Shown: positions 17,001-46,904 of the stretch, one piece after another
Layout: each line of letters opens with the position of its first letter
How positions within the stretch are numbered: the first letter of the stretch is position 1
Assembly: GCA_977020255.1 (NCBI GenBank)
Contig: CDROCS010004593.1
Coordinates: 62,001-126,000 of the forward strand
Direction of reading: 5' to 3'
Length of the DNA: 64,000 nt
Source: Obrimoposthia wandeli
Taxonomy: Eukaryota
Position numbers and translations under genes: made by a program
The notes under the pieces: model-generated
Database searches by the model: none
What the model saw: only the letters and a program-made list of their open reading frames with translations
What the model was told of the DNA's origin: nothing

Positions 17001-17020
17001 GGTCTGGCTCAGAAAGGTTA

Positions 17021-20019: not shown

Positions 20020-20960
20020 TACAAGTATGAATGCAAATATGAAGGCAAATACTAGTAAGAGCCTTAGCAAGTGAATGTAATTGAAAAAATAAGAGTGTCG
20101 AGAGTTTGATTGAATGCAAGTGTAATTTAGACTATAAGTAAATTAAAATAGAGTTTTCGTTGAATAAATTATAGTTAGATTGAATGCAAGTATGAATGTA
20201 AGTGAATGCTAGTATGAATTTCAATACAAGTAAGTGTCAAGTGCAAGTGAATGTAATTTAAAAATAAGAGTGTCAATAGTTTGATTGAATTCGAGTGTAA
20301 GTTAGACTATAAGTAAATTAAAATAGAGTTTTCGTTGAATAAATTATAGTTAGATTGAATGTAAATGAATGCAAGTATGAATTCAAGTGAATGCAAATAC
20401 AAGCAAGAGTCTTAGCAAGTGAATGTAATTGAAAAAATAAAAATAAGAGTGTCGATAGTTTGATTGAATGCGAGTGTAATTTAGACTATAAGTAAATTAA
20501 AATAGAGTTTTCGTATGAATAAAGTTATGTTAAGTTACAGTAAATTAATAACAAGTAAGCAACTATAAGAAGCAGTGATATTGAAGTATGTAAAAAATTA
20601 GAACGACTAAGTTATGGCAAGATTAATAGAAAACAACACTAAGTTTGACAGTATGAATGAAAATTAGTAAAATATTAATGTATTTGAATGTATTTGAATG
20701 ATAGTTTGAATAAATTACAGTTAGATTGAATGTAAATGAATGCAAGTATGATTGAATGCAGGGTCAAGTACAAGTAAGAAAGAATACGCAATATGCAAGT
20801 ACAAATGTAAATTATGAATGAAAATTAGTAAATATATTAATGAATTTGAATGCTAGTTTAAATATATGAGAGTTAGAATGAATGTAAGTGAATGCAAGTA
20901 TGAATGTAAGTGAATGCAAATATGAATGCAAATACAAGTAAGAATCTTTGCAAGTGAATC
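20020..20960. repeat. Nested minisatellite (gaatgcaagt/gaatgtaagt micro-units within ~180-bp blocks), mirrored at ~24590-25540
   Basis: Repeated gaatgcaagtatgaatg and ttagactataagtaaattaaaatagagttttcg blocks; strongly purine-biased strand. Confidence 0.8.
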
Positions 20961-21599
20961 TTAAACTGCAAGTGAGTACTAGCTAATTATTAAATTAATA
21001 CTATCAATCAATGAAGATGATGTAACAACCTGATGAAGTTATAATAATTAAGATGCGAACTTTCATATTTTCACATAGTTTACCTCCATGTTAAAGTTAA
21101 TCTTTCATACATATTCATGCAATTAAATAATTAAAATGTCTTATCTCGTTTGATAAAATTTCTTAATTGAAATATTTTAAAATAATTAGTTTAATTTAAA
21201 TTCTTTATTTTTAAATAACTTGATTATACAATTATATTCGTAAATATAATTGAAATTATCATTATTCGTTTCTCTTTTTAACTATTCGAAAATATATTTA
21301 AATACAAATTTAGTAAATTAACTCAACAAACAATTTTATTTTTTAATTACTTGATATTTTTGCCATTGTCCGTTTAATATAATATGAATATTCAATTTAT
21401 TTCTTCAAAAATTCATTTTTATATGTTAAATAATATTCTTTATCACATTATTGTGATTTTTATCAAGTGATTTTAACATTAAACTATAAAAATATTTTAA
21501 TTATAAAGTTAGTAGCTGTACCGCGCGTACTGCATATAATATAAATTTCAAATATAAAGTATTATTAAATGTATTCTTTCAAATAGTAAAAGTTCTTTA

Positions 21600-23500: not shown

Positions 23501-23965
23501 AGAATTTGTGTACTTGTATTCAATGATTAACTTTTATTAAACTTTTATATAACATTTAATGTTTAAAATACTTGAGCAAAGTAAATTAATATCATAAAAG
23601 GATATTAAAATGTATTTTAGTTTAAGATAAAAAATGAGGTTATACGAAGTTAATCTAGTTTAAAACAATTAATATCAAAATTACTTACCAGAATGTCTAA
23701 ACAACAGTAAACTATTATAACCTACAATAAAGAAACTATTGAATTATAATATAACCAATCGTATTCAGTAAGTGATAAATGTACAAATCATTAAAATTAT
23801 GATTAATAGGTAAACTATTCGAAATGTTGTAAAATCAAGAAATAAGTTAAAAATATTCATAGTTGAACAACTCATAACTGAAATTTACATTAGTTTAGTA
23901 TTGTATTATATCAAACATATACCTATACGTTTTAAATAAAGTTACTTTAAAAAAAAAAAAAAAAA

Positions 23966-26900: not shown

Positions 26901-28828
26901 TTATGACATGAAATTTAAGTTATTTAAAAAAAATTTTACCATAATTCTTTAGATGCCTAAGCCTGGGAAAAACTTTGTACTAAATTTTCACATAGAATAG
27001 TGTGTGTATTATTACGTAATACATTCCTTAACTGATAAGAGTGAACTTTCACATACCGTAATTGATTGATAAATGTGTTGGTACTTTAATATTTAAAAAC
27101 TTGTTAAATTAAAATTTGTTTAACTTTATTAATATCTAACAAATTAAATTGGCGCAAATTTAAATTATTATTATTTTCAAGAAAAATAAAATTACAAGTA
27201 ATTTTTCCGCAAAGAATTGTTTAATTACATTAATAAAATGGATAAAAATTTGCATAAATTTAAATATTTATCAAATTATAATAATAATAATACTATTAGT
27301 AAAGTAATTTGAGTTTATTAACTTTTTCCTTAATATTTATTTTAAATAATGTTACTTTAATATCTTAAAAACTTGTTAAATTAAAAATTTGTTTATCTTT
27401 ACCAAAATCTAACAAAATAATTTGGCACAAATTTAAATTTAAAAATATTTTTATTTTAGAAAATTACAAGTATTTTTATTTATTTATTTATTTATTTATT
27501 TTTATTTATTTTTTTTTTTTTTCACAAGGACCTCTTAAAGTATGCATGACCTTAAGGGTATCTTTGAAGTCAATTTTCATATGCAAATACAACCATGTAA
27601 TAAAATTATCATGTTTGTTCCAAATCTGACCCTTAACTTGTGAACGACCATAAAAAATTTTACATGATTAAACTCGTAATATGTTGACGAATACAACCAT
27701 GTACTTGAAACTATGAAATTCCAACTTTTCTTTAACCCTTCATCTATGGACGACCATACATATATGGATGAATTCGTCTTCTAAAGATGATTCCAACCAT
27801 GTATTCAAACTTTGACATTTAAAACTTGATTTGGTCTATATCCCGAACCCTTCATATATGACCGACCATACTTTATGACTGAATTTGTCTTCTAAAGATG
27901 ATTCCAACCATGTACTAAAAACCTTGATATTTTAAACTTGACTTTGTTTTTTTTTTTAGCCCGACCCTTTCACCTATGGACGACCACAACCCTTTAGATG
28001 TGATGGCCAACCATAGTTGACCTTAATTATACCTTCAAAGTTTCAAGTCAAAACTGACCTTGACCCTTTGATTTATGGACGTCCATGACCCTTTAGATGT
28101 GATGGCCAACCATAGTTGACCTTAATTATACCTTCAAAGTTTCAAGTCAAAACTGACCTTGACTCTTTGATTTATGGACGTCCATGACCCTTTAGATGTG
28201 ACGGCCAACCATAGTTGACCTTAATTATACCTTCAAAGTTTCAAGTCAAAACTGACCTTGACCCTTTGAATTATGGACGTCCATGACCCTTTAGATGTGA
28301 TGGCCAACCATAGTTGACCTTAATTATACCTTCAAAGTTTCAAGTCAAAACTGAGTCCGACCCTTTGACCTATGGACGACCACAACCCCTTGGATATGTT
28401 GGCCGACCATAGACGGTCACGACCATACCTTCAAACCTTCAAGTCAAAACTGACCCCGACCCTTTGATCAATGGACGACCACAACCCCTTGGGTATGTTG
28501 GCCGACCATAGACGGTCACGACCATACCTTCAAACCTTCAAGTCAAAACTGACCCCGACCCTTTGACCTATGGACGACCACAACCCCTTGGGTATGTTGG
28601 CCGACCATAGACCGTCACGACCATACCTTCAAACCTTCATAACCTTTCTGAGCCAGACCCTTATGGTGTGGCAAGACACCCCTATGGTGAGGCAACATAT
28701 ACCCTTATGGTGTGACACGCTATGGTGTGACATTTCTATGGTGTGACACCCTTATGGTGTGACACCCTTTAACTTGGTGTGCGCACACAAGGGGGGGGGA
28801 CCCCCCCCCCAGTGGTCTAGACTCTACT
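23966..28828 (-). repeat. Right inverted arm (~4.86 kb)
   Basis: Mirror of the left arm with one extra 99-bp unit, a 12-bp deletion 4 nt from the terminus (GGTACTTTGATG absent) and homopolymer length differences. Confidence 0.95.
27950..28640. repeat. Mirror 99-bp tandem array, 7 units (4 type B + 3 type A)
   Basis: ccttcaaagtttca near 28032, 28131, 28230, 28329; ccttcaaaccttca near 28428, 28527, 28626. Confidence 0.9.
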
Positions 28829-31200: not shown

Positions 31201-31485
31201 AGGATAATTATAAGGAACTTGGAGCTTTGAGTATTTATTACACTTATAAGAGAAAATACATGAAACGTATAATGTAATTTCTGAAGATAAGAAGTAGTTA
31301 TGAAGCAAAATGGAATTTAAAAGCGATTTTAGCTTTAAAGCCGTCTTTACTTGGACTCTGTATGAATTATTGCATTAATTATATTATAAATATATTTTTA
31401 ATTTTTTAATACAAGGGTCAATAATAAATTATTTGAATAAGAGGCTCTCATTAGACAATAAAAGAGGGTTAGTAAGATGTTTGTG

Positions 31486-31493
31486 TATATAAA
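31486..31493 (+). promoter_or_regulatory. Candidate TATA box
   Basis: TATATAAA 35 nt upstream of ATG 31528, where AT-rich flank switches to GC-richer coding sequence. Confidence 0.5.
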
Positions 31494-31527
31494 GACACCT
31501 CCGTTCATTATTTTTCATAAATCAACA

Positions 31528-33345
31528 ATGCCATTCTACAACAACGTTGACCTAGACGAAGAGACGGAGGTTCAACTCTATGGGGATCTCTCTCCAGTGC
31601 AGCAGCAAACGCCACCACTGTCATAATACATTGACTTAGATAGTCAAGAGTCATCGGTGGTGAGCGAAGGAGAAGCAGCAGCAAGAGCGAACCTGTTACA
31701 AGAAGAAGCCTCATTGGCCAGCTCAACTCCAAGAGAAGAACCAATGGACGTGAGAGGTGGGGTACAGAGATCCCAATATATCGATCTGACTAGTCAGGAT
31801 TCGATAGAGAATTGGGAAGACTGTACTCCCAGACAAAACACAAAACCCAATCGTCCGGCAACTTCATTAGTAGCAGCAGGGAGATCCAATCTCTTCGACA
31901 ATTTTGAGGCGGCAATCAAATGCCCCTGGAAATTGATCCCGCTGTCTCAGCCGGAGAAAGTCCTCGCACCAGACTCAGACGAGGAGCTGTTCACCGATGA
32001 TGTACCTTCGGATTGGGAGGAGGACTTGACTCCATTCATCGACGAATGGATACAGCCAAGTATCGGAGCCCCAGGAGCCAACGAGTCAATGGTAGCAGAA
32101 TAGGACGAGGACGAGTGGCACCTGTTCACCGACGATTGGGATGGTCTCACTCCCTCTGCTACTCCGAAAGCAGATAATACAATGCCTGAACCATTCAAAG
32201 GGTCGAAATCTCCTGTTAGGAGAATAAAAGCAACGAATGAGGTTAGACATCATTTATTTTAAATGTTTTTTAATTTCATTTTCAGAAACTTCAACTGGAT
32301 TTGGCACCGTCAGTGACCATGACGGAGAGGCTAATTGAACCGCAATACTTAGCGAGTCAATGCAGCCAGGAGCTGCCAAGGAGTCAGCTCCGATACCTAG
32401 CGTCTCCAGATAATTTTAAGGTAAATTATTTAGATATTAAATTTAATAATTCATATAGATGGAGAACATTCGCGAAGAGGCAACGTCTATTCAACCGGTG
32501 GATAGGAAGAAAGCAGCAGTTAAGAAACCGAAACGCCATCGGGTCAAAACCCTCACGCGGAAGAAGACCAAGTTGGTGAAACAGGCTAACCTGCCCATCA
32601 TTGAGGTAAATTATTTATATGTTTAAATTTTATTAATATTTTGCAGGAACCCGTCCAGATATTTGAGGAGACTTGGGGAGAAGTTACTCCTTTCTCGCGG
32701 AAACGGACGAAGAGGGCAGAGGTGAAGAAGACAAGACGCTCGAGAAAATGTAAAACCTCAATTGGTCATTATTCTGAGACGGTGATTGGTCAGCAGGAGA
32801 TTCTCCAATCTCCAGTGGACGACGGACCAATCCTATATGAGAGGATCCCAGTCTCGCCGATCGAGATAAGTCCGTCCTCAAGTCAACGACGCCTGCAGGA
32901 GACTGCTTCTTCTCGTCCAACAACCAGCCAGAACTTGAAGAGGGCCTGGGATGACGCTGGTTTGGATGAATTCCTGGCGGAACTGGATTCACCGGCAATG
33001 CTTCCAGATTCGCGTTGGCAACAGGATGCCGTCTCACGCCAGCTTCAGCTTGAGAAGGAGGAGAAACAGAAGAAAGCTCCGCGGAAGAGGAAGAGGACTT
33101 CTACGTCGGGACCATCAACATCGGCTGCACCTCCTCCCAAAACGTTGCGGCAACTATTTCCAAAACCTGAGGGAAGGACAATTGCTACAAAGCAACCGGT
33201 GAAGCCGAAAAAGAAACCGGGCCGACCAAAGAAGAAGGAACCAGTACCGCTTTCTCCTATAATACTTAGTCGGAGGGATTACGACCCGAATGATCCCAAT
33301 GATGACTTCGTAAAGATGTTTAAAAATATAATTTATAAACATTAG
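31528..33345 (+). pseudogene. Four-exon gene for a ~565-aa disordered protein with SIM-like, acidic-aromatic and AT-hook-like motifs; two in-frame stops
   Basis: Exons 31528-32241, 32286-32420, 32459-32605, 32647-33345 join in frame through three phase-0 GT-AG AT-rich introns (44, 38, 41 nt). Stops at 31624 and 32101. Confidence 0.75.
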
Positions 33346-33539
33346 TTTCATATGTTTTCTTCTTAATATTTATTTTTTTAAATGTAGAAATACTATCTTT
33401 AAGTTTATTTGCAATGATAAGTTATAGATTTATTAAACACTCATTTGATAAATAAAAATATATCATTTAATTGGATTAAAAAATATCTTTAATTTATATA
33501 TATAGGTTTAAATTTATTAACCTTTTCATAATTAAAAAA

Positions 33540-33860
33540 ATGGAATTCATTAAAATGAAGAGTCTGGTGACGAAGATTGAAGCAAACATCAGAATAAATG
33601 AGAAGAAAGGGGACTTAAAAAAGAGGGTCCTCAATCAAAATTTGTATACTGCTGTCGCGACAGAGTGGAATCATCGGGTGGAGATACAGGATAGGAGGCT
33701 AGCAGAACGCCGTCGATTCGTGGAGTGGAATAAGAATATCGAATTGGAAAAAAGGAAGGTGGATGAAAAAAGAAGAGAAGAGATGGAGGATGTTCGGCGA
33801 GCAGCAAGAAAGAGAATCCTCCAGATTAAACCGGAAGAGGGTCCTTCTACAAAAAAATAA
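33540..33860 (+). CDS. 106-aa charged, coiled-coil-like hypothetical protein
   Basis: Intact ATG-to-stop ORF with coding-like composition in AT-rich flanks; E/K/R-rich C-terminal half. Confidence 0.65.
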   Translation: MEFIKMKSLVTKIEANIRINEKKGDLKKRVLNQNLYTAVATEWNHRVEIQDRRLAERRRFVEWNKNIELEKRKVDEKRREEMEDVRRAARKRILQIKPEEGPSTKK

Positions 33861-33982
33861 ATTTTTGATTATTATTTTGTCTTTTTTGATTATGTTACAT
33901 AGGAGAATTGACAAAATATTCCAATCTTAACATGAAAGTACTTCGTTATAAACAACGGGATTTGCTACAAATTTAGATAATT

Positions 33983-34183
33983 ATGCAGGAATATATCATA
34001 GATTTTGAGGCTTTCATTAACAAAAATGGGGATTATATTATAAAATAATTATGTATTATGGATGTATGCGACTTTTTTCATCCTTTGCATTTCATATTTC
34101 AAATAGATATCCCATTTAAAAGTTTAGATTATAAGAAAAAATTTACTAATTTATATCTAACTAAATATTTCTCAATTTTTTAA
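33983..34183 (+). pseudogene. DnaQ/DEDD-like exonuclease-fold ORF remnant
   Basis: MQEYIIDFEAFINKNGDYIIK*LCIMDV..HPLHFIF: ExoI-like IDFE motif followed by IKEL-like strand (stop at 34046 where E is expected). Downstream part frameshifted. Confidence 0.5.
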
Positions 34184-34366
34184 TCCAATAGGAAAAGAGC
34201 ATGTGTGCATAAATTTTAGTATATAAGCAAACACTTTCTTCATTTAAATCCCCGACAATTTGAAATAATGCCTATGGTAAGAATGTATTTTTATTATTTC
34301 CTTATTAATATTTATTATTTCAGATTACTTGTAACCTATTCCCTGCGTATTGTGGTGCTTCGTACA

Positions 34367-35621
34367 ATGTCTGCATACTACCGGACAAAGTCTCGCGGGC
34401 TTCACTTCTTTGTCTGCCCCTTCGGCAGAACAATGGAGGAGAAGGAGTTTCGAGACTTCTTCAGTGAACATCGAGCTCATCTATCGTGTTTCACGGCCAA
34501 CAAGAAGAGGGATATCATGCAATTGGTGCGCGATTCACAGGTCGCTCCACATCCAATTCCAGTTGCAGTCGATCAACCCTTTTACGGTCCTGCGATTGGT
34601 CTCCCGGCTCCTGATTCTGACCCATCCACTCAAATGTCTAACAATGAGTGGATGAATGACATATCCCAGTCAGATTTTGAGATAGAGCAGTGGAGCGATA
34701 ACTCGTGGTTGGAGACCATTGAGGAATCCGATTTCATCGAGATGTCGGACGACAGCTGGATGGATTTCGTCAATGAAGAGGACTTCATTCCAGCTCAACT
34801 TGGATTGCCTTCATTAGGTATTTTTTATTATTATTTTTAAATCATATATTTTATTTTTTAATATATATATTTTATTTATATTTTTTATTCAGGAAATACC
34901 GTTCTACAATCGTCATCTGCTACAACAGATATGCCTCCACCATCGCGAGTGCCTACATTGATGTTAGCACGCCTTAGAGGTAATAACTTTTAAAAATATA
35001 TTTATTTTTTAATATATTTCAGCAGCACTAACCTCTACAACAACCGCTTCTTCATCGGCAAGGTCAGCGGTCCCTTCAACATCAGCTACAGTTGCCTCAA
35101 CATCGGCAGCATCAACAATAGCAGCAGCTTCCACATCAGCTTCAATTGTCTCAACATCGACAGCATGTCCAATAGCAGCACCTTCAACCTCAGCTGCAAT
35201 TGTCTCAACTATTAATATAAATAGTTGTCTTCCCATTCAATTAGGGGGAGGTTTGTCAGCGACAAACGGAAGAAAGAGGCGAGGCCAATTTTTTAATAAG
35301 GTCCCACCCAAAAAACGTAGAGAAAACGGTGCTACTATAGAGTATCACCTAAATAATAAATATGTTATAGTTAAGGTGCCATTAGGAAATGAAATTTTAT
35401 TAAACGTAGGTGTAGATTCAAATATTGAAAATCTTTTAAAATCAGAGGTGACTAAATTAGGACAGGCTAAGGTTCAATTTTGCGCAACAGTGCAGTTTAA
35501 AAATGTCAATGAGGAAACTAAAACTGGGGTAATTTCACATAAAGCAACTGTTTTTTATGATAATTTTGTAACTGAAATTGGAAGAAACCTTGATGAAAAA
35601 TTGCTAATTATAGCGAGTTAA
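34367..35621 (+). CDS. Spliced N-terminal extension of the pPolB reading frame (acidic Trp repeats, Ser/Thr/Ala linker, QLGGG, basic motif)
   Basis: Exons 34367-34817, 34893-34979, 35023-35621 join in frame through phase-1 GT-AG introns of 75 and 43 nt and run without a stop into track ORF 35253. Confidence 0.7.
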
Positions 35622-38610
35622 GTAGTGGATGGACTCTAGTTAGAATTCACGATGTTAGCTTTGTTCTAACAAAGTTCACTGACATGATATATCTTTCGGG
35701 GAGTTCATACATTCCTTCGCCTAGATCTCTTCAACTTTCACGTTCCATTGTTAACGTACAAAACAGTGATAACCTTTGCTTTCTGTATAGCGTGTTGGCC
35801 ATCCTCAAAGGGATGTAATTACTGAGCATAGAGAGCGTGTCAGTAAATATACCCTTTTTTAAATGAATTGCAGTATCATGGAATAGATTTTCCTGTTAAA
35901 TTAACTGCGATATCAAGATTTGAACATCTTAATAACTTGAGTATTAATGTATTCAAATATAATACTGATATCCCAGTTAATGTAACAGATGAAGAAATTT
36001 TTAAAAATCCTTTTGTAGATGTAATTTATAGGAGCAAAAATGAGGGGACTCAGGTCAACTTAATTTTGCTCGAACATAATAAAAAATTCCATTATGCTGC
36101 AATTCCCAATTTAGATCGTCTTCTAAATTTAGATAATGGAGCCTTACCGGTTAGGATAAGGTGTAAGTGGTGTCATAGATGTTTGCATGGGTTCCGATCC
36201 GAGCTCTCTTACAGCAAACATCTGACATTATGTTCACTGAATCCTGATGACAATACACTATATAGCATGCCTAAGGATAAGGATTTAAAATTCAGGGATT
36301 GAGCAAAATGCATACCCATGGAATTCAGGGTGTATGCAGATTTTGAGTCAATTTTAGCATTGCACGACCAGTATGAGAGTATTCACCTACCGGCTTCGGC
36401 AGGACTACTATTCTTAGGCCCCAATATTACCCAGTATCATAAATTTTCCGGTCCAAATTGTATTTTAGATTTTATGTTAAAATTAGAGGAATTAGGAACA
36501 ACAATTGTCAAACCGTGGTATCATCTCAATGCTCATCAAGCAATGATCATGCAGGCATAGACTGGGTTAATTTTAATTCTTGTAGATTATGTTATTTGTG
36601 TGGAACCCAGTCTAAGTTAGTCAGAGATCACGATCATGTTACGGGCCGATACTTGGGAGCGGCGTGCAACCTTTGTAACCTTGGCCGTCGTCTCCCTAAA
36701 AAACCACGCATTCCCATCGTGTTTCATAACCTCAAAGGATATGATTTGCATCATATACTTAAATACGCGTTGGGTACATTAAGCTCTTGGGAAATTTCAT
36801 GTATACCTCAAACTTCAGAGAAATATTTATCTTTAACTGCATATACTGAATTCTGCAGTTTAAGATTCATAGATTCTCTGCAGTTTTTGAGCGGGTCTTT
36901 AAAAAATTTAACGGCATCTTTAAATGCATGGCCAATTACACAGTCAGTGTTCCCAGCTTCGGTTAACGATAAGGGGATTTTTCCGTATAAATTTGCGAAA
37001 ACTTTCGCAGATTTAGAAAATACAACTGAAATCCCACCCATAACTGAATTTGAGGGTGTAAGTCTTCAAGACTATAATGAGACCCGTACATTTTGGGTGA
37101 ATAATTGTCAAAATCTTCTCGAATATATGCTTTATTATATGAAGTTAGACATTTATCTTTTAACTGATGTGTTTGAGTCCTTTAGTGTAAAGTCTTTAGC
37201 AGAAGATGGGCTAGATCCCATGCATTTCTTTAGTTTACCTGGTCTTTCATGGGCAACAGCAATAAAAACTCTTAAAATTAATATCGAGTTACTGCAAGAT
37301 CCCGCGATGTATCAAATGTATGATTATGGTATACGCGGTGGAATGACTTTTGTCAACAAACATCATGTTGTCAAAAATCAATCCACGGAGATTCTGTACA
37401 TCGATATTAATAATTTGTATGGGTGGGCGCTTACTCAACCTCTACCTCATGCCAACTTTAAGTCGGTTTATGATGTGGATCAGTTGAATAAGTTGATGAC
37501 AGATTTGGCTACTGTTGATACAGTTTCATCCGACGTCGGCTATTTGGTTGAGGTGGACATAAAAATCCCTCCCAATGTGCATGATAAATTAGATGATCTT
37601 CCAGTAGCGCCTGTTCATCAATGCCCACCTAATTCAAAGGTTAAGAAATTATTGTTAACCCATGAAGACAAGTTGAATTATGTTGTGCATTGGCGGCTTC
37701 TTCAATTCTACTTAAAGTTGGGAGCAAAAGTTACTCGAATTCATCGTGCTATAAGCTTCAGTCAAAACTTTGTGTTTAAAGACTATATTGAGAAGAATTC
37801 AAGAAAACGTAATTTGGCCACTAGCAAATTCGATCGAGATTTTTACAAGTTAAAAAGTAATAGTCTCTTTGGAAAAACTGTAGAGGACTTGCGGAAACGT
37901 ATTTGTCTACGGTTTAGCAATGATGAGCGTAAACTAATAACATATACTAGAAAGTACAACTTCAAGGGTAGTTTTACAATTGCAGATGACTTGGTAGCAG
38001 TGTTATTAGGAAAACAGAGTATTTGTCTCGATCGACCGAGTTATATAGGTCAAACGGTTTTAGACATTTCTAAACTCAGAATGTATGAGCTTCAATACAT
38101 AGAATTGGAGAAATACCGACAAGAATTTAATTGTGAGATTAAAATCGCAGCTGGGGACACTGACTCTTTCTTTTTAGAATGTAGGAATGTTAGTTTAAAT
38201 AATCAATTATTACCAGCAATGTTTAGGGACAACTTACTAGATACCCATAAATATCCCGCTAACCATCCTCTACACTCTATGAGTTTAAAGGACATTATCG
38301 GGAAATTTAAGGATGAAAGCGAGGGACAGGTTTTTCTATGATGATTGTATTTTCCTACGCCCTAAATGCTACAGTTTACATGCATCTAATAATACATGTT
38401 CAATGAGAGCAAAGGGTGTGTACACATGAGGCCTACCGGAAAGTTTATGATACTGGGTGTATTGAAAGCGTTGAGCAAACTAGATTTATTTCAAGAGCCC
38501 ATCAACTGTATTCCCATAAATCAACCAAAATCGCGTTGAGTAGTAATGACGACAAGCGCTTTTGGGTAGAAAAGAACGCTAGCCTGGCTTATGGACACTT
38601 CAGAATTTAA
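35253..38610 (+). pseudogene. polB: Protein-primed family B DNA polymerase (Polinton pPolB), disrupted
   Basis: N-terminal GSSYIPSP..IVNVQNSDNLCFLYSVLA and GIDFPV; ExoI RVYADFES; ExoII FHNLKGYD; motif A YIDINNLYG; motif B KLKSNSLFGK; motif C GDTDS; C-terminal ALSSNDDKR..LAYGH. At least six stops or frameshifts (~35620, 35810, 36300, 36560, 38340, 38420). Confidence 0.95.
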
Positions 38611-38883
38611 ACGGTTTTTATTTTATTTTAGTTTTTTTAGTTTTTTAAAATTTTAGATCCCTATGGCACCTAGACTCTAACTTATTTGTTATTTCAATAC
38701 TTTTTTAGGATGGACCTTATTTATTATGCCTTATCTTTGCTGACATATCTCATTGTGATGTTGTGATTAATAAATGTATTAAAAAAAATTGTCTTATGTC
38801 TTTTTTTATTTTACCCTTAAATTTTTAGAGATTTAAAAAATAATTCAAAATAAAACATTTGAAATTTTTATTTTTATAACACA

Positions 38884-39264
38884 CTAATCGTTTTGCAACG
38901 ATAACCATAAAATACATAAATGTCCACAGTTTCTCGTCGCAGGATCCTGATATTGTATCTTGTTGTAAAATACTCTTCTTCGTCCTTTTTGAATAGTTGA
39001 AACAAGTTTGTGTGGATAATACATTGCAAGTGGATCAAATACATGTATTGTCCACTCTCTAACATAAATAGCTATCCAATGTTCTCCTGGTAAATTCAAA
39101 GTATGAGTATTGATAATGTAACCTCCAGATTGAAAAAATGGAATCATATCAATAGGATAAACTCCATTGAATTTATCACCCAGGACCTTCTCTGCTGATT
39201 CTTTTACTTGTTTTGAACTAAATAAAAATTAATAAATATAAATTTAAAATATGTCTTACTCCAT
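38884..39264 (-). CDS. Adenain-like (Ulp1/C5-type) cysteine maturation protease, two exons
   Basis: GEHWIAIY, VFDP and QYQDPATRNCGHLC give the His/Asp/Gln/Cys catalytic set. ATG 39264, a 42-nt GT-AG intron (39259-39218) and MDSKQVKE..FNGVYPIDMIP restore the N-terminus. Confidence 0.9.
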
Positions 39265-39265
39265 T

Positions 39266-40495
39266 CTATAATATGACAGTTCTGTTTTTATTGATTTGTA
39301 TTTCCGAATCAAATACTCCGTAAATAAGCACCGTAGTAGGATTTGTTAAAGCTGCATTGAACTTAATTTCTAGTCGTAAATTTCCATCCTTTGGTAGTTG
39401 GCATTGGTTTATATCAAAGTCTGGTGCCAAAACAAATGTGAAGAACGGGCAGCTGTTTTTAAAGTCAGTGAAAGAAATACCATTGTTTATATTTTTATCT
39501 AGTTGACCCAAATTTCGAATAATAGATTGGGTATAAGCAAAAGCATAAGCGTTACCTTCGAAATCTGTTTTATATGTTTCACGATAATCAGTATTTCTTG
39601 AAAGTGTCACCGAACCTACACTAAGATTGTCAAATTGAGTTGCATCTGTCGTATAATTTCCTAGAAACTTTGCAGTTTTTTGAAAAGAAATTAAAATGAA
39701 TTTCGGTAATCTTACATCACCAAAAATTTGATCTTTATTAAAAGCTTGTGTACCCGTACCTAAAGAATAAGATATAAGTTTAGTTTCTCTAATAGGATAA
39801 CAAGCATTGTTTTTTTCCATTCCTATATTATGTGCCATTAAAACTGATTGCTCGGTTTTAACTCTTCGAGCATACAATTTTGCATCCAAAATATCAAGTC
39901 TAGGTTTTAGAATGTCCGTGCTTATCAAAGAAAAATTCCATTTATTACGTTTCAAACGAAGATGTACATTAACACCGGGAATTAAATATTTCGGTTGTTC
40001 AAAGAAATTCAATCTCAAAGACCCACACATTTCGTAAGCTTTAGAACCTGCAATCCATTCTTTGCGAGTTGCATCAGTTTTATCATAACCAATGGTTGCC
40101 AAAATAGTATTTTGAGTATCAGTACTATAATTCAAAAGACTTTCAATCAAAGCTTTATGAGCATAGGAAGAATTTCCACCTTCAATTTTGACATTATTAA
40201 GAGTAACAATGGCATCATTAAATAAAGAATTAAATAGATAATTTACAGGTGTTACATCGGCATTTTCATCTAAATTAGTACCATCCCGATTTAATACTTT
40301 TATTTGAACATAAAGCAAAGTATCATTCAAATCTAAATACTTGCTATTGGAACCATTAATATTAAATTCTAAATCGGTTAAAGTGGTTCCTGAAACTGAG
40401 TTAACAAGGAATATTTCTTCAAAGGAAGCATTATCTACAACTACTTGTGGAAGCGGTTTATCAAAAATACATAATTCAGTTTTGGCGCAACTCAT
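39266..40495 (-). CDS. Major capsid protein (double jelly roll, Polinton PY/hexon-like), intact 409 aa
   Basis: N-terminus CAKTELCIFDKPLPQ, NYLFNSLF, YLIPGVNVHLRLKRN and C-terminal GNLRLEIKFNAAL match the Polinton capsid pattern; position between protease and PX-like gene. Confidence 0.9.
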   Translation of the reverse strand: MSCAKTELCIFDKPLPQVVVDNASFEEIFLVNSVSGTTLTDLEFNINGSNSKYLDLNDTLLYVQIKVLNRDGTNLDENADVTPVNYLFNSLFNDAIVTLNNVKIEGGNSSYAHKALIESLLNYSTDTQNTILATIGYDKTDATRKEWIAGSKAYEMCGSLRLNFFEQPKYLIPGVNVHLRLKRNKWNFSLISTDILKPRLDILDAKLYARRVKTEQSVLMAHNIGMEKNNACYPIRETKLISYSLGTGTQAFNKDQIFGDVRLPKFILISFQKTAKFLGNYTTDATQFDNLSVGSVTLSRNTDYRETYKTDFEGNAYAFAYTQSIIRNLGQLDKNINNGISFTDFKNSCPFFTFVLAPDFDINQCQLPKDGNLRLEIKFNAALTNPTTVLIYGVFDSEIQINKNRTVIL

Positions 40496-40869
40496 TTTGC
40501 AAATATTGTTCCTTCAACATTTTTACGTTTGTTTATATTAATTTTTAGCTTCTTTTTACTTTTAAATCCACTACCTCCTTGGCTTTTATTTGATTTACGT
40601 TTTCTAATCAAATTAGCAACTTCAGGTAAAACATTATCAAGTTCATCAAGTGCATGCTTCTTAAAAGTTGGTATTAGTTTATTGTCATTAGATGAAAGGT
40701 AATCCTTTCCTAATTTTGATATAAATCGCCCGAGTCTCTTTAAAAGAGGATAGGCAAATCTACCTAATGTTCTAAGCCAGCCAGATCCGTATTGTTTACC
40801 AATAAAATATGGTAATTCTCCACCGTGTTGGCTTTGACTATAAGCTTCAACTATTGCTGGATTCGCCCT
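40492..40869 (-). pseudogene. Polinton PX-like small basic core/virion protein; start codon apparently mutated (AGG)
   Basis: Open 125-codon frame missed by the track: ANPAIVEAYSQSQHGGELPYFIGKQYGSGWLRTLGRFAYPLLKRLGRFISKLGK...QGGSGFKSKKK. Its TGA overlaps the capsid ATG (ATGA). Confidence 0.7.
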
Positions 40870-41906
40870 TTTGTTTTCTTAAATGTATTGTTAAACTTGT
40901 CTTGGACCCATACGTGAAATCTATTAGTTGTGCGGAATCATCTCTAATATTTACTTCAATATTGTTTATAGAAAAGAGAGAAACTGGAAGATACATTGGT
41001 TGATCTATACACATACCGACAGCATCCTCATCTCTAGTTTCATTTTTAGATATCCATATTGTTCTCAAAAGTGGAACTCGCTGTCCTCCTACAAGCGTTG
41101 ATTCTATTAAATTAGTATAAATATATAAATGCTTAACAACATTTAAAGGTTTTGCCTTATTTTTTAGCTTTTATGGTTTTTATTGTATGGGTTTCAAGGG
41201 TATTTCTGTTTAAACCAAGGTTTTTAGTGAGTTTATCATCAAATGAAACCCGTTTTATGCTGCTCTTTACTGTAAACGTTAATTTACCATTTAATGTTAC
41301 ACATTTATCCAAATATTCACTACATTCCTTCTGTATTAATTTACATAAATACACTTCACTATCTATTTTATTATCTTTTGAAAACCTTTTCAGTTCCACT
41401 ACAGTCTTTGGTCTCGTTTCAAGTAACAACACTTTTGCTACTCTACCAGGAACATTTTTAACCGATTTAGATGAGACAATATCCCGTTTATTACGAGCTA
41501 CTGTTTGTTCACTATCAAAACTGAATTGAAGAGCTTCTTTTTTAGATTCAAAATTAATTTTAATAACTTGAAGAAATTTTAATCGATTTTTAAATCTGAC
41601 TTTGTTATTTTCAAATATTACTTTCACTTCTTTATCTATACAATTGTAATAGAATTGTCCTTTACTATGAAACCCGATCACAATTTCAGTTGTTTTTTCA
41701 TGATCAACTTCTTTTGTAAACGAAATATGTGAGTTTTTTTTGATAGTAATTGGAGAATAATAAAAAGAAAATTCTGTTAAAGCCGCTTCCCATTCTCCTT
41801 GGAGATTTATAGAATTTTCCCAATCGATAATAAAGCTACTAGCGTCATTATCTGGTTGAGTCTTCGGACATCCGTTACTTGGTAAAACCATATACATAGA
41901 ATTCAT
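40847..41906 (-). pseudogene. Minor capsid/penton (single jelly roll, Polinton PZ-like), one frameshift at ~41165
   Basis: MYMVLPSN..PDN..GEWEAALTEFSF N-terminus; after a shift in an A-run, LYIYTNLIESTLVGGQRVPLLR..PMYLPV..IEVNIRDD..LTIHLRK C-terminus. Confidence 0.9.
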
Positions 41907-42930
41907 ATTATATTAGATGCTGATATCCAAGTTGGATCTGAATAACCATGCCATTTAACATAGTATTGTTTATGTTTACCGACACCCTTAGATTTTAATA
42001 TTTTTTGAATACGGAAAACGCTAGGTTTATTTGATATTACTTGTAGTTCTTGCTCGTAAAATTTACCGTGAACGATATTATTGTCAGCATCTTTAATAGT
42101 ATACATTATTGGATTACTCTTTTGATCAATTTTACTTATACAAAATATTTCATCGCTCCAATTCTAATCAAAGTTTTTAATAAATGGAGTAGAGCTAATT
42201 TTCGAAATTCGAACAGATTCGTTTTTCTTATATTTAGCTCTTTTAATTTTTTCTTTTTTATTCCTGTTCATCCAAATGTCCATAGAGTTTTTATTAGTAA
42301 CATCAACAGGTCTCATTCCCTTGAGACCTCTATGTTCAGAGTGATTATATGCATGTATTATTTTAGGTAAAACTTGGATCCATTTTTTATTTCCTTCTTT
42401 TGTGAAATACTTTTTATTCGACCTCTTAGAGTACGATTAAATCTTTCTACTACTGCTGCTTTGTATTGTGAAAACACAGAGTAATGATTTATATTATTTT
42501 GTTTAAATAAGGATTGAACTTGCTTATTATAAAATTCATTCCCTAAATCAGTTTGTACATTTTGTGGAATGTCCTCTTTCAATATTTCTTTAATGGCTTC
42601 AAGCATAGCTATTGAAGACTTTGCTTTAACTGGAATTGCACGAGCAAACCTGCTAAATACATCAATACATGTTAAAATATATCGATATCCCTTATTAATG
42701 GAAGAATATGGGATCATCTCCATCAAATCCATTTGCAATAAATTATTAGAACCGCTGGTTTTGTAAGCTCTAGTTGGAAACCTTCTTCTCATCGGCTTGT
42801 TCAGACTGTAGGCTAACTGGTCGCTCAGCCATTTCTGCGTTTTCTTGTAATTTTGTTTTGTTCTTTTTGCTAATTTTGAAACTCCTGTGTAGCCAATTGG
42901 ATCTTTTGGATTGAACCATATCTTCTCCAT
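41903..42930 (-). pseudogene. Retroviral-like (rve) integrase with C-terminal chromodomain
   Basis: QMDL, IDVFSRFA, QTDLGNEF, VERFNRTL give D-D-E; after a frameshift (~42410) YNHSEHRGLKGMRP and FYEQELQ; chromodomain FRIQKILK..YYVKWHGY. One stop near 42160. Confidence 0.95.
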
Positions 42931-43016
42931 TACAACAATTTGAATAGAAAGAAAATTTAAGTTTAGGTAAAGAAGGGCTAGCACCCATATCTTTAGCTGA
43001 TTTTAGAAATAATTGT

Positions 43017-43344
43017 TTATGAACGTGTCGCAGCTATAATACTACTGATAATTGAAGCAACAACTGGAATAACAGCCCCTATGAAACCATCATTCTGTTT
43101 AAGAATAATATTTCGTTTCCTTTTTTTTTTTTACATTAGCAATATCTAGAAGAGTTTTTCTATATTTCTTTAATATATTTTTCCGATTTCCAACTTTTAC
43201 TCGACCCAAAACTATATTATACAAAACTTCCAATAAATCATCTACAACAAAGGATGGAAATGCTTTAAGAATAATCATTCTCTTATTAGAAGAGGCTTTG
43301 ACTAAAGCTTTAAAATAGGGTATGCTTCTTTGTATTTTCTTCAT
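43017..43344 (-). pseudogene. Polinton PW-like small protein, frameshift in A-run at ~43125
   Basis: LVKASSNKRMIILK..DDLLEVLYNIVLGRV, then RKRNIILKQNDGFIGAVIPVVASIISSII: basic stretch, QxGG-like site and amphipathic tail typical of this Polinton ORF. Confidence 0.7.
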
Positions 43345-43359
43345 TTTAATAAAAAAGGT

Positions 43360-43513
43360 TCAATTTAAATATTGTTTATATTCGAAGCCATTTAAGTTTT
43401 TTTTATTTTTAACTACAGATTTGATTAATTTTTTCACTTCTTTTTCTTAATGATTCTTTTTTTGATTTCTTAGATTTTACTTTACGTTTTACTATCAACT
43501 TTGTAAAAGGCAT
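43360..43513 (-). pseudogene. ~50-aa lysine-rich peptide (one frameshift)
   Basis: MPFTKLIVKRKVKSKKSKKRIIKK then EVKKLIKSVVKNKKNLNGFEYKQYLN*, filling the gap between ATPase stop and PW start. Confidence 0.4.
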
Positions 43514-43520
43514 TGCGAAT

Positions 43521-44168
43521 TTATTTTTTATAATTGTTCTCTATTTGTTTATAAACAGTTACTCCCTTAGAATTAAATATGTCTGTTAAAACACGTAAAT
43601 CATCTGGGCAAGCTTGTGTAAAGTCAATAAATATATACCCATGTGCTTGTTTAGCAGCATCGTGGAATGAATCAACTAGAAAGTTCTTATTTTGAGGAAA
43701 TGCCTGTCTGGCCACAAAATCAACAACTGTTTGATCTCTAGGATTTTTAAATAAAACTAAGTAATGTACATTAAGATTTCTTGTTCTATGGTGACCTCCT
43801 TGGTGAAACAGATTTTGAGTGATAAATATAACTGTAACTTCACGATGTCTTGCAATCTTTGTAAATAAATTATTAAAGTTCGATTCCTTGTTAGCTTCCT
43901 CATACAAATCATCAATTATTATTACATCTTCTTTTTTCAATCTTTCACACCAATTTGCATCAAATCCTTCAATAAATTTTATACCCTTCAACTTGCAAAC
44001 TTCTGTTTTGGTTAACCCGCTTTCCCCTCCTCCACCATGATGCCAATAAATATTTTTGAAACTAGATTTGAAAAGAGATTCATTTTGCAACAATTTACAG
44101 ACGAAATGTGTCTTTCCACTTCCACTTGGGCCAACTATTTGAAATACAGCATTATTATTTAGCTCCAT
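43521..44168 (-). CDS. A32/FtsK-like genome-packaging ATPase, intact 215 aa
   Basis: Walker A GPSGSGKT, Walker B IIIDD, RH motif (KIARHRE), FITQNLF, YLVLFKNPRD, GYIFIDF. Confidence 0.95.
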   Translation of the reverse strand: MELNNNAVFQIVGPSGSGKTHFVCKLLQNESLFKSSFKNIYWHHGGGGESGLTKTEVCKLKGIKFIEGFDANWCERLKKEDVIIIDDLYEEANKESNFNNLFTKIARHREVTVIFITQNLFHQGGHHRTRNLNVHYLVLFKNPRDQTVVDFVARQAFPQNKNFLVDSFHDAAKQAHGYIFIDFTQACPDDLRVLTDIFNSKGVTVYKQIENNYKK

Positions 44169-44205
44169 TGCTTATACTCTTTCATTTTTAATATTGTTTA
44201 TATTA

Positions 44206-44478
44206 TCATAGAAGTTTCCTTATTGAAATGTACAATGTTAGAGCTATTGTAGATGAAATACAAAAATTAATTAATGAATATTTGGCTATAATTTTATTTA
44301 TTTGTGTACGATTTCTAAATTCTCGAATAACGTGTGATCTAACCAATATTTCAATGTTATCTCTTGTTATATCATTATTTTTTAATTCTGATAAAATTTA
44401 TTTACCCCTAATTTTTCCAGAAAATATTTCATCGGCAAGCCGATCCACTTCATTGTCTCTATTTATAGTATTATTCAT
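44206..44478 (-). pseudogene. 90-codon ORF with C-terminal hydrophobic helix, one in-frame stop
   Basis: MNNTINRDNEVDRLADEIFSGKIRGK*ILSELK...KYSLINFCISSTIALTLYISIRKLL; same orientation as neighbours and fills the ATPase-TBP gap. Confidence 0.45.
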
Positions 44479-44562
44479 TTGAAACAATAAGTTTAAACGG
44501 GGTTTGTTTATAGAAAAAAGATAACAAGATGTAATAAGATATATTTTCTAAAATCAAATCAA

Positions 44563-45003
44563 TTAGACTGGATAATCAAAATTTTTCAGTCCCAATATCA
44601 TAACTTTACCACTGGAAAATATATTTACACATAGCGGTTTAAACTTCAAATAACTGAGAGCAGGAAAAATTTCTGGTTTAAACATGCATTCTTCTTTCAT
44701 TTTCTCTGCAGTTTTAAAAAGATTTATCTGTTTCCCGAGATTAGCCGAAATCGTGATTGATTGTATTGCAGTGATTTGAATACCAAATGGTAAATTGAAC
44801 CCAAGCATTGGTATTTTGCATCCCATAACACGACAATTTCCTAAAGAATTCAATATAAAAATAAAATAAAAAACTAACCTGTAGGAAAAATAACAACTGT
44901 GAAATTGTCAAACTTTCCTACATATTTTCTCGGCATCCATTCATTGAATGGTAAGTACGAAACATCATCTTCTACCTTTATAATTTATATTTACGAGTTT
45001 CAT
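44563..45003 (-). pseudogene. Compact TATA-binding-protein-like (two TBP repeats), 38-nt intron and one frameshift
   Basis: Repeat 2: IQSITISANLGKQINL..FKPEIFPALSY..VNIFSSGKVMILGLK (TBP: IQNIVGS..YEPELFPGLIY..LIFVSGKVVLTGAK). Repeat 1: MKLVNINYKG..TVVIFPTG/NCRVMGCK joined across GT-AG intron 44878-44841. Confidence 0.85.
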
Positions 45004-45181
45004 TAGACTGAAATTGTATTCTGTAAAATCTTCTTTATATATGTCTGAACCTGCTTTTTTATTGCACGTTTCTTGTAATTATCTTGCAAACCTATTATAA
45101 TTGGATGATATATTTAGTCCAATCAAATTCAATGCTTTTGTTATATTAACCAATGAGATTCATGTTTTTGTTAGAAATTAG

Positions 45182-45188
45182 TATAAAA
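45182..45188 (+). promoter_or_regulatory. Candidate TATA box in the divergent intergenic region
   Basis: TATAAAA with initiator-like TCACAGT ~30 nt downstream (45211) and ATG at 45220. Confidence 0.5.
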
Positions 45189-45219
45189 GAATGCGCCATT
45201 GGAGGACAAATCACAGTAA

Positions 45220-45696
45220 ATGCATTCATATCAAAGACAATTATCAACGATGGACGATAGCCAACGGGTATTAAGCGATGACGAAGAAATGTTTGAAGAA
45301 TCGGATAAGGATATGTATGAAGAAGTGAAACAATATTTCAAATACAAAGTCAGATTCTTGAAGAAGGCTCAGCTGATTGCTTTAGTAAATCCTGTGACAA
45401 TTGAAAGAAGAAAGTTCAGCTACTATCTATCAGGTATTCAAAAACCTGATTTTCAATATCTTAAACAGAAAATAGAAAAGGCAGTTCCAAATTTTACTTT
45501 CAATAAGAACGAATTTTATATCCGAGGAGCCGATGAAGCATTTCTAGATGACTATGGAAGATATGTTGATATTGATGCGTTTCCGAAAAAGAAGCAATGG
45601 ACTGTAACAATTCGACTTTATGGTTACAAGAAAGATGAAATGGGAACAAAGTTGCCTATGTGGAAAATTGAACGTGCTCATATTTATATGTTTTAA
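45220..45696 (+). CDS. Unknown protein, paralogue A (148-158 aa, acidic N-terminus)
   Basis: Intact ORF; start at 45220 or 45250; aligns by eye to the next ORF. Confidence 0.8.
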   Translation: MHSYQRQLSTMDDSQRVLSDDEEMFEESDKDMYEEVKQYFKYKVRFLKKAQLIALVNPVTIERRKFSYYLSGIQKPDFQYLKQKIEKAVPNFTFNKNEFYIRGADEAFLDDYGRYVDIDAFPKKKQWTVTIRLYGYKKDEMGTKLPMWKIERAHIYMF

Positions 45697-45829
45697 CTTT
45701 TGTGTGTAATAAATTGTAATCGGTTTTACTATGTTTCTTTCATTTAATAATCAGTTTTATTTGTATCTTATTTGTATATTATGTATATTTTTTATAAACA
45801 TTGTTTTTAATCAGTTTCCTTATTTTAGA

Positions 45830-46217
45830 ATGGATAAAAGATGTGTAGCAAATTTTTATTATCCAGAAAGAATTTCAAAAGGAAAACTGTGTAATATATT
45901 AAAGAGGCATCAAATTATACGAGTTATAAATCCTGTGAAAATATCAAAAGTGGAGAAAAAATATCTCATCGAAATTTTAACAACAACTGATTTTGATCAA
46001 CTGAAAAATATTTTGGGATTTTACATTCCTGATTATGTATATGAAGGAAATTGTTTCGAGCTTGAAACTGATCCCAGTCTGGATTTTAAAGATTGCTCCA
46101 ATTCTAGATGAAGAACTATGGAATATCTCAATACGTCTGAATGGATATTTTGCTGATGACGGGACAATGCAGCCTCTCTGGACTTTGAGTGAAGCCAATA
46201 TGTTGTTTTATGTTTAA
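45830..46217 (+). pseudogene. Unknown protein, paralogue B, one frameshift at ~46085
   Basis: MDKRCVANFYYPE..LKRHQIIRVINPVKI..TDFDQLK..IPDYVY, then (shifted) WNISIRLNGY..GTMQPLWTLSEA. Confidence 0.7.
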
Positions 46218-46342
46218 TAAATATTTTGAAAAATAATTTTGTCTCGTATTTTGTTTTTGCTCCTCTAAATTATATAGATCTGACCGATGTTTTTCGTGCC
46301 TGTAGATCAAGAATGAAGCCCGCCCCAAAGGGGCGGGCGGAG

Positions 46343-46599
46343 NNNNNNNNNNNNNNNNNNNNNNNNNNNNNNNNNNNNNNNNNNNNNNNNNNNNNNNNNN
46401 NNNNNNNNNNNNNNNNNNNNNNNNNNNNNNNNNNNNNNNNNNNNNNNNNNNNNNNNNNNNNNNNNNNNNNNNNNNNNNNNNNNNNNNNNNNNNNNNNNNN
46501 NNNNNNNNNNNNNNNNNNNNNNNNNNNNNNNNNNNNNNNNNNNNNNNNNNNNNNNNNNNNNNNNNNNNNNNNNNNNNNNNNNNNNNNNNNNNNNNNNNN
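46343..46599. other. Assembly gap (257 N)
   Basis: Run of N; flanked by a GC hairpin on the left and a tandem array on the right. Confidence 1.
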
Positions 46600-46603
46600 G
46601 TGT

Positions 46604-46737
46604 GAGAGCGAGACATCCTTACATCGCCAAGCTAGTCTGTGACCTATATGAGAGCGAGATATCCGTACATCGCCAAGCTAGTCTGTGACCTATATGAGAG
46701 CGAGATATCCGTACATCGCAGGACTAGTCTGTGACCA
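46604..46737. repeat. 46-bp tandem repeat, at least 3 units, abutting the gap
   Basis: gagagcgagatatccgtacatcgccaagctagtctgtgacctatat starts at 46604, 46650, 46696. Confidence 0.9.
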
Positions 46738-46760
46738 ATGTCGGTCCCGAGCCCTTCGCC

Positions 46761-46867
46761 CCCCCTTGTCTTTTAAAACCGTGCATGTGTGTGGAGTAAA
46801 ATTTCACTCCACACACCTACACGAAATTTCACTCCACACACATGCACGGATTTAAAGGACAAGGGGG
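46761..46867. repeat. Subterminal palindrome (~45-bp arms)
   Basis: cccccttgtcttttaaaaccgtgcatgtgtgtggagtaaaatttc pairs with gaaatttcactccacacacatgcacggatttaaaggacaaggggg with ~3 mismatches; 17-nt loop repeats part of the arm. Confidence 0.9.
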
Positions 46868-46874
46868 AGGGGGG

Positions 46875-46904
46875 TGTGGATTAGACCGGACACATCCACC
46901 TACT
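46875..46904 (-). repeat. Polinton right terminus (AGTAGGT... read inward)
   Basis: Reverse complement AGTAGGTGGATGTGTCCGGTCTAATCCAC; followed by ATCGGT and a return to AT-rich DNA. Confidence 0.8.

Follow-up and report, generated by a model that had tools for sequence, protein, structure and literature searches.

A cut-down TATA-binding protein gene of Maverick elements in Obrimoposthia wandeli and the TATA-like box that accompanies it

Results

The Maverick copy in the window

The window, that is the whole 64-kb stretch of Obrimoposthia wandeli DNA analysed here, contains a Maverick/Polinton copy at 31420..46904. This copy is left-truncated: its right terminus lies at 46904, where eight further copies, on other contigs or as second copies, share the terminal ...CTACT and differ in their flanks, the left inverted repeat is missing, and similarity to the family begins at 31420, whereas the siblings continue into repeat-like sequence. 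The first-pass annotation called the element Polinton-like, which is borne out by the matches of its core genes to PF03175, PF00665 and PF04665; the core gene set and the layout are shared with Mavericks, Polintons and adintoviruses. A protein-primed polymerase B on the plus strand (35013..38341; PF03175, E 1.5e-30) is faced by the morphogenesis block. The minus strand carries an A32-like packaging ATPase of 215 aa (43521..44168; PF04665, E 9e-7, over the cut-off), an integrase with a chromodomain in three pieces (41903..42930; PF00665, E 7.2e-11, and PF00385, E 3.6e-6), a putative minor capsid protein in two pieces (40847..41906), a putative major capsid protein of 409 aa (39266..40495) and a putative adenain-like protease (38884..39228; PF00770, E 0.039, below the cut-off). 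Both capsid candidates are conserved in relatives and have no Pfam match; the minor one was named by position and the major one by size and position, and both identities also lean on what we take to be the usual Maverick gene layout. Several core genes of this copy are in pieces.

The mini-TBP gene (44563-45003, minus strand) lies upstream of the ATPase and head to head with orf45220 (45220..45696, plus strand; 158 aa), a conserved neighbour whose family occurs in many loci. As a lead, orf45220 may be a viral OB-fold single-strand binding protein, although its Atlas matches are weak and all under 0.9 (Pox_I3 for 12% and DUF2738 for 10-13% of members). The family forms tandem paralogues here (45220-45696 and 45830-46217, the second one broken) and adjoins the TBP gene in many elements.

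Canonical TATA boxes stand 38 nt before the mini-TBP ATG (TATATAAAG, 45033..45041, minus strand), 38 nt before orf45220 (TATAAAAG, 45182..45189, plus strand) and before the first left-arm ORF (TATATAAAG, 31486..31494, plus strand); the latter two had been pointed out at first pass and are indeed found in the sequence. The box at 45033..45041 is likely read by the host TBP, and a canonical TATA box is present in 20/48 upstream windows of mini-TBP family genes. The acidic activator-like proteins that had also been ascribed to the element are not supported: there is no Pfam match, and D+E amounts to 12-14% in two left-arm ORFs measured in frame.

Layout and damage of the mini-TBP gene

The gene consists of two exons with the ATG at 45003. 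Exon 1 (44879..45003, minus strand) covers strands S1, S3 and S4 of a reduced repeat 1, exon 2 (44563..44840, minus strand) supplies S5 of repeat 1 together with the whole of repeat 2, and between them lies a 38-nt GT..AG intron of phase 1 (44841..44878, minus strand), which splits the Gly codon of IFxTG and is predicted to be spliced. Its length is 38 nt in 16/17 copies with both ends matched and 37 nt in the other one; three other families show intron-like breaks at the same position, and two families are without an intron.

Exon 2 alone matches the Pfam TBP family PF00352 with E 7.8e-12 (45.3 bits, cut-off 22.9), and exon 2 of a sibling copy matches 35 TBP-containing PDB sequences at E < 1e-5, the best being 1mp9 (5.9e-13). 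The strand-turn motifs IFPTG|NCRVMG and IFSSGKVMILG, as well as KPEIFPAL, are all found in the window gene; the earlier recognition of both TBP repeats by their diagnostic strand-turns is thus confirmed. The product of ~133 aa proposed with it cannot be kept, because that figure ignored a frameshift: in the window copy a short frame-shifting deletion near 44973 closes the exon 1 frame after 12 codons, and a second deletion near 44565 stops exon 2 after 91 codons, with most of the last helix lost. Judged by its sequence, this copy, broken and part of a left-truncated insertion, probably makes no protein. When the window copy is counted, 15/20 copies have an exon 1 open to the donor and an exon 2 of at least 100 codons, most often 122. 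The product of such open two-exon copies is ~165 aa long, and intronless family members have 144-154 aa. A chance ORF or an artefact is ruled out by the Pfam E-value, the TBP matches in the PDB and the 15 open copies.

Relatives, phylogeny and selection

A DNA search of the same genome with the window gene gave 566 candidates, 40 of which were scored, all being 96-100% identical over the whole query. First-look candidate counts for Mavericks in general run into tens of thousands and are not copy numbers. With PF00352, 150 matches in the genome were scored: host TBP/TRF loci take the first ten places, and the following 20 that were retrieved are Maverick-type genes from several families with 52-94% identity to the window exon 2, one of them intronless with 144 aa. 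Because the element multiplies the TBP gene, PF00352 gene counts for this genome are inflated by Maverick copies. The host TBP/TRF genes themselves (L021-L030) are several, with two standing head to head on C238 and divergent ones on C968; intronless 214-aa TRF-like host genes lie on C60 and C1092.

A profile search of 1.84 billion representatives returned 45 matches at E <= 1e-30, nearly all of them short mini-TBP-type proteins; none of the 20 protein clusters looked up, which come from ENA, JGI, Logan or SRC assemblies, bears more than a generic TBP name. In a metagenome scan 56 mini-TBP loci were found, but a Maverick core gene is present in only 26/56 of them, and in 18/24 of those of at least 3 kb. 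Mini-TBP scans of IMG/VR yielded five loci, all with giant-virus-type TBPs, and then none, and IMG/VR scans with the ATPase and the capsid recovered no Maverick. The Maverick contigs L177-L183 sit inside bacterial MAG records, where they are probably mis-binned.

In a quick tree of 84 hand-chosen rows, some of them single exons and with long branches, 47 Maverick-type TBPs make up one side of a branch with SH-aLRT 96, and the short mini-TBP group has SH-aLRT 99. On the other side stand 5 host, 5 other eukaryote-type, 16 archaeal-type and 4 viral rows; four IMG/VR viral TBPs fall outside the Maverick branch. No donor of the Maverick TBPs can be named from this 84-row tree. Compared with host TBP/TRF genes and viral TBPs, as had been suggested, the Maverick genes group apart, in many copies and families. 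A recent capture of the host TBP is ruled out by this separate branch and by the multiple families.

The dN/dS ratio was 0.10-0.49 in 11 of 16 pairs and 0.75 and 1.01 in two near-identical pairs, and three pairs were saturated; the ratios indicate that the mini-TBP family is under purifying selection. Copies of family 1 carry 11 synonymous and 28 non-synonymous variants, which looks close to neutral decay.

Predicted structure and the DNA face

The AlphaFold2 model of the intronless member L034 (144 aa; pLDDT 97.5) is a nine-strand saddle, in which S1, S3, S4 and S5 are followed by a linker and a complete repeat 2. H1, S2 and H2 of repeat 1 are missing, the only helices are the two of repeat 2, and the canonical form with four helices and two complete repeats is absent. 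All 144 residues of the model align with yeast TBP 66-238 (VIA Z 13.9, rmsd 2.3 A), and likewise with human TBP; in a structure search five TBP chains scored Z 11.5-13.9, followed by another fold at 6.8, the top PDB and viral Foldseek matches are TBPs, and the sequence scores 63.8 bits against PF00352. A TBP fold is thus predicted for the family, and the reduced first repeat claimed at first pass is seen in the model as the loss of both repeat 1 helices.

In an 80-row alignment (L034 numbering) the conserved residues are N4 (94%), N6 (97%), F39 (99%), R45 (97%), M47 (100%), S69 (96%), E94 (94%), P95 (91%), E96 (98%), F98 (100%), R102 (90%), N112 (100%) and F114 (100%). Conservation is concentrated on the concave DNA-facing strands and on the YEPE stirrup. 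The assignment of cellular TBP residues that face DNA or bind regulators is background, except where PMC12529657 gives it. A profile alignment places R45, M47, S69, T71, R102 and N112 opposite V, T, N, V, I and L of cellular TBP. The hydrophobic DNA face with its two Asn is altered: the first Asn is kept (94%), the second is Ser (96%), and the polar swaps are V to R, L to N, I to R and V to N/T. The intercalating Phe positions, which the first-pass annotation had singled out for inspection, gave a divided picture, as three of the four are kept (F39, F98 and F114, 99-100%), whereas the first has no conserved aromatic but Pro in 95% of rows, at a place where the alignment is of low confidence. 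TBP and TFIIB are a textbook pair, and the acidic TFIIB-binding stirrup of repeat 2 appears from the alignment to be retained (E94, P95 and E96).

The longer Maverick group is represented by L118 (169 aa), for which ten strands and four helices, all kept, are predicted. Since this group has the same R, M and N changes on the DNA face, the face was likely altered before the truncation took place.

These observations bear on the idea, also put forward at first pass, that the protein is a decoy for TBP-binding repressors. A decoy or dominant-negative protein that soaks up host TBP partners, with the box described below being unrelated to it, could sequester TFIIB by means of its retained stirrup. 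However, conservation is highest at DNA-facing residues, which are unlike those of the host TBP that a decoy would mimic, and the repeat 1 helices on the regulator side are precisely the part that was deleted; in addition, the co-occurrence of gene and box would be left unexplained. Therefore the decoy is disfavoured, and we regard it as very unlikely.

A conserved box before packaging and capsid genes

The word ATAAACA was first spotted by eye in a 90-nt upstream listing of the core genes. In these windows, whose start codons were picked by a script, some of them wrongly, and whose loci are related to each other, it precedes the ATPase in 17/19 cases, the major capsid gene in 11/12, orf43344 in 10/10 and the minor capsid gene in 9/11, with 0 antisense occurrences upstream of the same genes. 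The exact word is found before the integrase in 5/13, the SSB-like gene in 2/10, PZ in 1/6, the protease in 0/6 and polB in 0/6 cases, and before the mini-TBP gene itself in 1/48 upstream windows. As YATAAACR, the box occurs 87 times in sense and twice in antisense in 12 modules of TBP-bearing elements, and the sense count is above all 200 dinucleotide shuffles in 11/12 modules. The whole 64-kb window has 22 boxes against 22.3 by chance, the enrichment being local to the module. The same box is shared by elements with 38% ATPase identity from different metagenomes. YATAAACR has C at position 7, a base that the cellular consensus TATAWAWR does not allow there even in its degenerate form YWTAWADN (PMC1935006).

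Within the window copy, minus-strand TATAAACA boxes stand 34 nt before the ATPase ATG (44195..44202), 36 nt before the conserved orf43344 (43373..43380) and 42 nt before the putative major capsid ATG (40530..40537). One more, at 44505..44512, lies at the TBP gene's 3' end and precedes a small ORF by 34 nt. Other TATAAACA boxes of this strand lie within genes: the one at 43546..43553 is inside the ATPase 3' end, where it forms YKQ codons, 40 nt before a small basic ORF, and overlaps a plus-strand match; the one at 40963..40970 is inside the 3' part of the putative minor capsid gene, ~100 nt before a PZ-like ORF, which is without a qualifying ATG in the decayed window copy and has a box-ATG distance of 98-99 nt in L096, L101, L115 and L179; the one at 39484..39491 is inside the putative major capsid gene, and its target, perhaps the protease, is uncertain. 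Two minus-strand boxes have the form CATAAACA: the one at 43014..43021 precedes a small conserved MG..CC ORF by 33 nt and the integrase ATG by 91 nt, and the one at 41967..41974 sits inside the integrase chromodomain, 68 nt before the putative minor capsid ATG. On the plus strand, TATAAACA is found at 45793..45800, 37 nt before the second SSB-like paralogue, and at 33947..33954, where the siblings have a DEDD-type ORF ~36 nt downstream that is broken in the window copy. We take this ORF to be the 'MAEL'-like gene of a published adintovirus map.

The MG..CC ORF (52-76 aa; 42988 on the minus strand of the window) starts with MG, has a CC or CxC motif and lies directly before the integrase. It is present in 11/11 stretches (window, L081, L084, L086, L094, L101, L115, L179, L052, L163 and L169), with a box 32-48 nt upstream in 9 of the 11, and is possibly a lipid-anchored virion protein.

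An ATG follows 25-50 nt downstream at 59/122 box sites (12 elements), as against 4.3% of 2300 random positions, and the median box-ATG distance of 36 nt comes near the 38 nt seen for the window's canonical TATA boxes. Where the box falls in coding sequence near 3' ends, 21/22 [YH]K[QH] tripeptides use exactly the box codons, compared with 5/10 of such tripeptides elsewhere (expected about 0.45).

It could be argued that the box is a polyadenylation or termination signal, which precedes the next gene only through tight gene packing, as TATAAA and CATAAA are variants of AATAAA. Many boxes do lie at the 3' end of the upstream gene, 7/122 sites have a nearby same-strand stop and no ATG within 300 nt downstream, and in two elements boxes cluster behind polB. 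However, the spacing follows the downstream ATG (sd 12 nt) and not the upstream stop (sd 85 nt). Moreover, 13 sites stand before a gene and have no same-strand stop within 300 nt, 33 sites are buried in an ORF by more than 45 nt, so that cleavage there would sever the transcript, and AATAAACA (11) is rarer in the modules than TATAAACA (61). A signal for the end of the preceding message is thus hardly to be expected.

Mavericks without a TBP gene

A comparison set of 7 Maverick contigs was picked by the ATPase alone. Two of them have TBP, and both carry the box; one was too short; four contigs without a TBP match, which are partial so that the gene could lie outside them, have 0 sense boxes in ~18 kb of module, where ~1.9 are expected by shuffling. 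A search of the genome with the ATPase and capsid of the TBP-less contigs gave matches of only 25-34%. A second Maverick group in the same host, distant and perhaps served by other machinery, showed no TBP match in six stretches of 8-13 kb (160-246 frames per stretch, best E 0.039), and the box was found in 1/43 of its ORF-start windows. Among 53 ATPase-picked loci, 22 have no TBP within 1.5 kb: most of these belong to a family whose TBP sits ~2 kb upstream in C179 and C3229, and in C1872, which has a nested insertion, 20 kb next to it yielded no TBP; L161 belongs to the second Maverick group. The TBP gene and the box co-occur. Since the comparison contigs are few, incomplete, distant relatives and not phylogenetically independent, the comparison shows co-occurrence and not interaction, and gene and box may be co-inherited without interacting.

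The second Maverick group (L161; G000 C1961:200250-213300, C2121, C1772, C3352, C2862 and C179) has an A-run directly before the ATG at 22/43 ORF starts, with T-rich upstream DNA, which recalls poxvirus-type starts. It also has an Adeno_PX-like match, and it may depend on a helper virus.

The box could also be read by a host factor, be it the host TBP, a paralogue or a Forkhead protein, with mini-TBP doing something else. ATAAACA fits the Forkhead site RYAAAYA, and divergent TBP/TRF genes are present in the host. By its title, the PDB entry 1qn3 shows wild-type TBP on an adenovirus TATA box with the C(-25) change, so that host TBP can bind a C-variant site in vitro. Against these points stand the strict sense orientation and the fixed spacing of the box, the lack of enrichment of GTAAACA-type words (TGTAAACA 2 sense, 2 antisense in the modules), the absence (0) of TATAAAAG from the modules, the recurrence of the same box in elements so diverged in their ATPases and from different metagenomes, and its lack in the TBP-less Maverick group that lives in the same host. 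We consider a host reader unlikely.

Discussion

Like the cellular TBPs and TRFs of eukaryotes and archaea, mini-TBP has the saddle sheet, a complete repeat 2, the YEPE(L/I)FP stirrup, three of the four Phe and the first-repeat Asn. Unlike them, it measures 144-165 aa, lacks H1, S2 and H2 of repeat 1 in its group, has a polar DNA face and belongs to a branch separate from the host genes.

Our data imply that the Maverick-encoded cut-down TBP is, with fair probability, a late-promoter factor that attaches to YATAAACR and thereby brings host TFIIB and Pol II to the morphogenesis genes. The protein likely switches on late genes, because the box precedes most packaging and putative capsid genes and two kinds of Mavericks with no TBP gene detected lack it; 'late' is here inferred from gene type. 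In the proposed course of events, host TBP would transcribe the mini-TBP gene early from its canonical TATA box, and mini-TBP would then bind YATAAACR ~36 nt before most packaging and putative capsid genes. The polar DNA-face residues N6, R45, M47, S69, T71, R102 and N112, together with the lost repeat 1 Phe, may allow C at position 7, which lies in the half of the box faced by repeat 1 in cellular TBP. The kept acidic YEPE stirrup would bind host TFIIB and so recruit host Pol II. TFIIA, TAF1 and Mot1 are host regulators that dock on TBP, and the loss of the repeat 1 helices would remove their docking surfaces. The first-pass idea that the protein redirects host Pol II to element promoters fits this scheme, but the DNA to which it had been tied was not the right one: at 31486 and 45182 there is canonical TATAWAWR, which would suit host TBP, before early-looking genes, whereas YATAAACR stands before the morphogenesis genes. 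More tentatively, and here doubt slightly outweighs trust, it could be that a large Maverick branch runs its own early-to-late switch with a single TBP of 144-165 aa, which reads C7, is free of regulators and remains compatible with TFIIB and Pol II.

Mini-TBP could instead bind the box and repress or time the promoters, or serve another polymerase or an element-encoded partner, so that it would not recruit TFIIB. The loss of two helices and one Phe could change DNA bending, a conserved neighbour gene travels with mini-TBP, and herpesvirus ORF24 (PMC12529657) and poxvirus VITF-3, a TBP variant (PMC12917281), act in non-canonical assemblies. However, the acidic stirrup (E94 and E96) is among the best conserved parts of mini-TBP and is lacking in ORF24, the box is spaced much like the element's own canonical TATA boxes (38 nt), the spliceosomal-type introns seem to point to nuclear Pol II, and Pfam finds neither a TFIIB-like nor a transcribing polymerase gene in the element. 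An action of this kind is improbable.

The factor that recruits TFIIB to the box, as we propose, has a functional parallel in KSHV ORF24, EBV BcRF1 and HCMV UL87, which share with mini-TBP a viral TBP fold, kept Phe, a polar face and a one-base TATA variant before virion genes; ORF24 reads TATT late promoters with such a polar DNA face and kept phenylalanines (PMC12529657). By analogy, mini-TBP may work like these proteins without being a member of their group, its build being unrelated. BcRF1 is a weak fold match of the mini-TBP model (E 3.3e-3). ORF24, a large protein of several domains, contacts Pol II directly, needs five viral partners and lacks the TFIIB-contacting acidic residues (PMC12529657), whereas mini-TBP is a bare 144-aa domain with these residues kept, and its variant base is at position 7, not 4. 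An N-terminal Pol II-binding domain and a C-terminal DNA-binding extension of the ORF24 type are absent, as the 144 aa align end to end with the TBP core; the five herpesvirus partner activators have no Pfam match among the 31 window ORFs, many of which matched nothing. Giant-virus TBPs and poxvirus VITF-3/VETF are virus-encoded TBP folds as well, but they are at least as long as cellular TBP and mostly serve a viral polymerase, unlike mini-TBP. The mini-TBP model has 25 BFVD matches at E <= 0.001 and matches the vaccinia intermediate complex 8p0j at Z 5.5.

The first-pass statement that TBP homologues stand outside the canonical Polinton gene set was slightly too strong, since the legend of Fig. 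5 on MELD virus maps (Starrett et al., 2021, PMC8502044; preprint 10.1101/697771) already explains a 'TBP' label. That legend gives no family, structure or promoter analysis for the label, and the text of Fig. S2 of the same paper, on animal adintovirus maps, has no TBP label. The accessible text of the Maverick and PLV papers that we consulted has no description of the mini-TBP family, its truncation or the box. In the accessible text of PMC10748475, PMC11161782, PMC11296320, 10.64898/2026.10.13.758929, 10.64898/2026.06.19.733378 and 10.1101/2023.10.06.561300 neither TBP nor TATA was found, and the same holds for TATA in that of PMC8097293, as of which Maverick virions had not yet been seen.

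A dedicated TBP and a matching box make a testable switch for the control of Maverick capsid genes, and the box provides a one-line rule for Maverick gene starts, which has already exposed the small ORF before the integrase. If it binds as predicted, this minimal TBP would separate DNA recognition and TFIIB recruitment from control by TFIIA, TAF1 and Mot1, and proteins of 169-179 aa with four predicted helices and of 144-165 aa with two would form a natural series with the same changed DNA face. If the proposed mechanism is true, this would be a natural TBP of altered specificity that has its own orthogonal core promoter and arose independently of the herpesvirus system, and its presence would be a sign of a staged viral life cycle in these 'transposons'.

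Some further features of these elements and of the window may be mentioned. In other families, accessory genes lie beside the TBP gene (L169:3047-3943, L260:399-1196, L118, L123 and L177), which encode an IAP with BIR and RING, a dual-specificity phosphatase, KilA-N proteins and a PLA2-like domain. Mavericks of different families occur nested or side by side (G000 C3352, C1612, C408, C90 and C179). Finally, positions 16836-28824 of the window form a near-palindrome of 12 kb, which has internal tandem repeats and arms that extend over several kb and resembles a foldback-type element.
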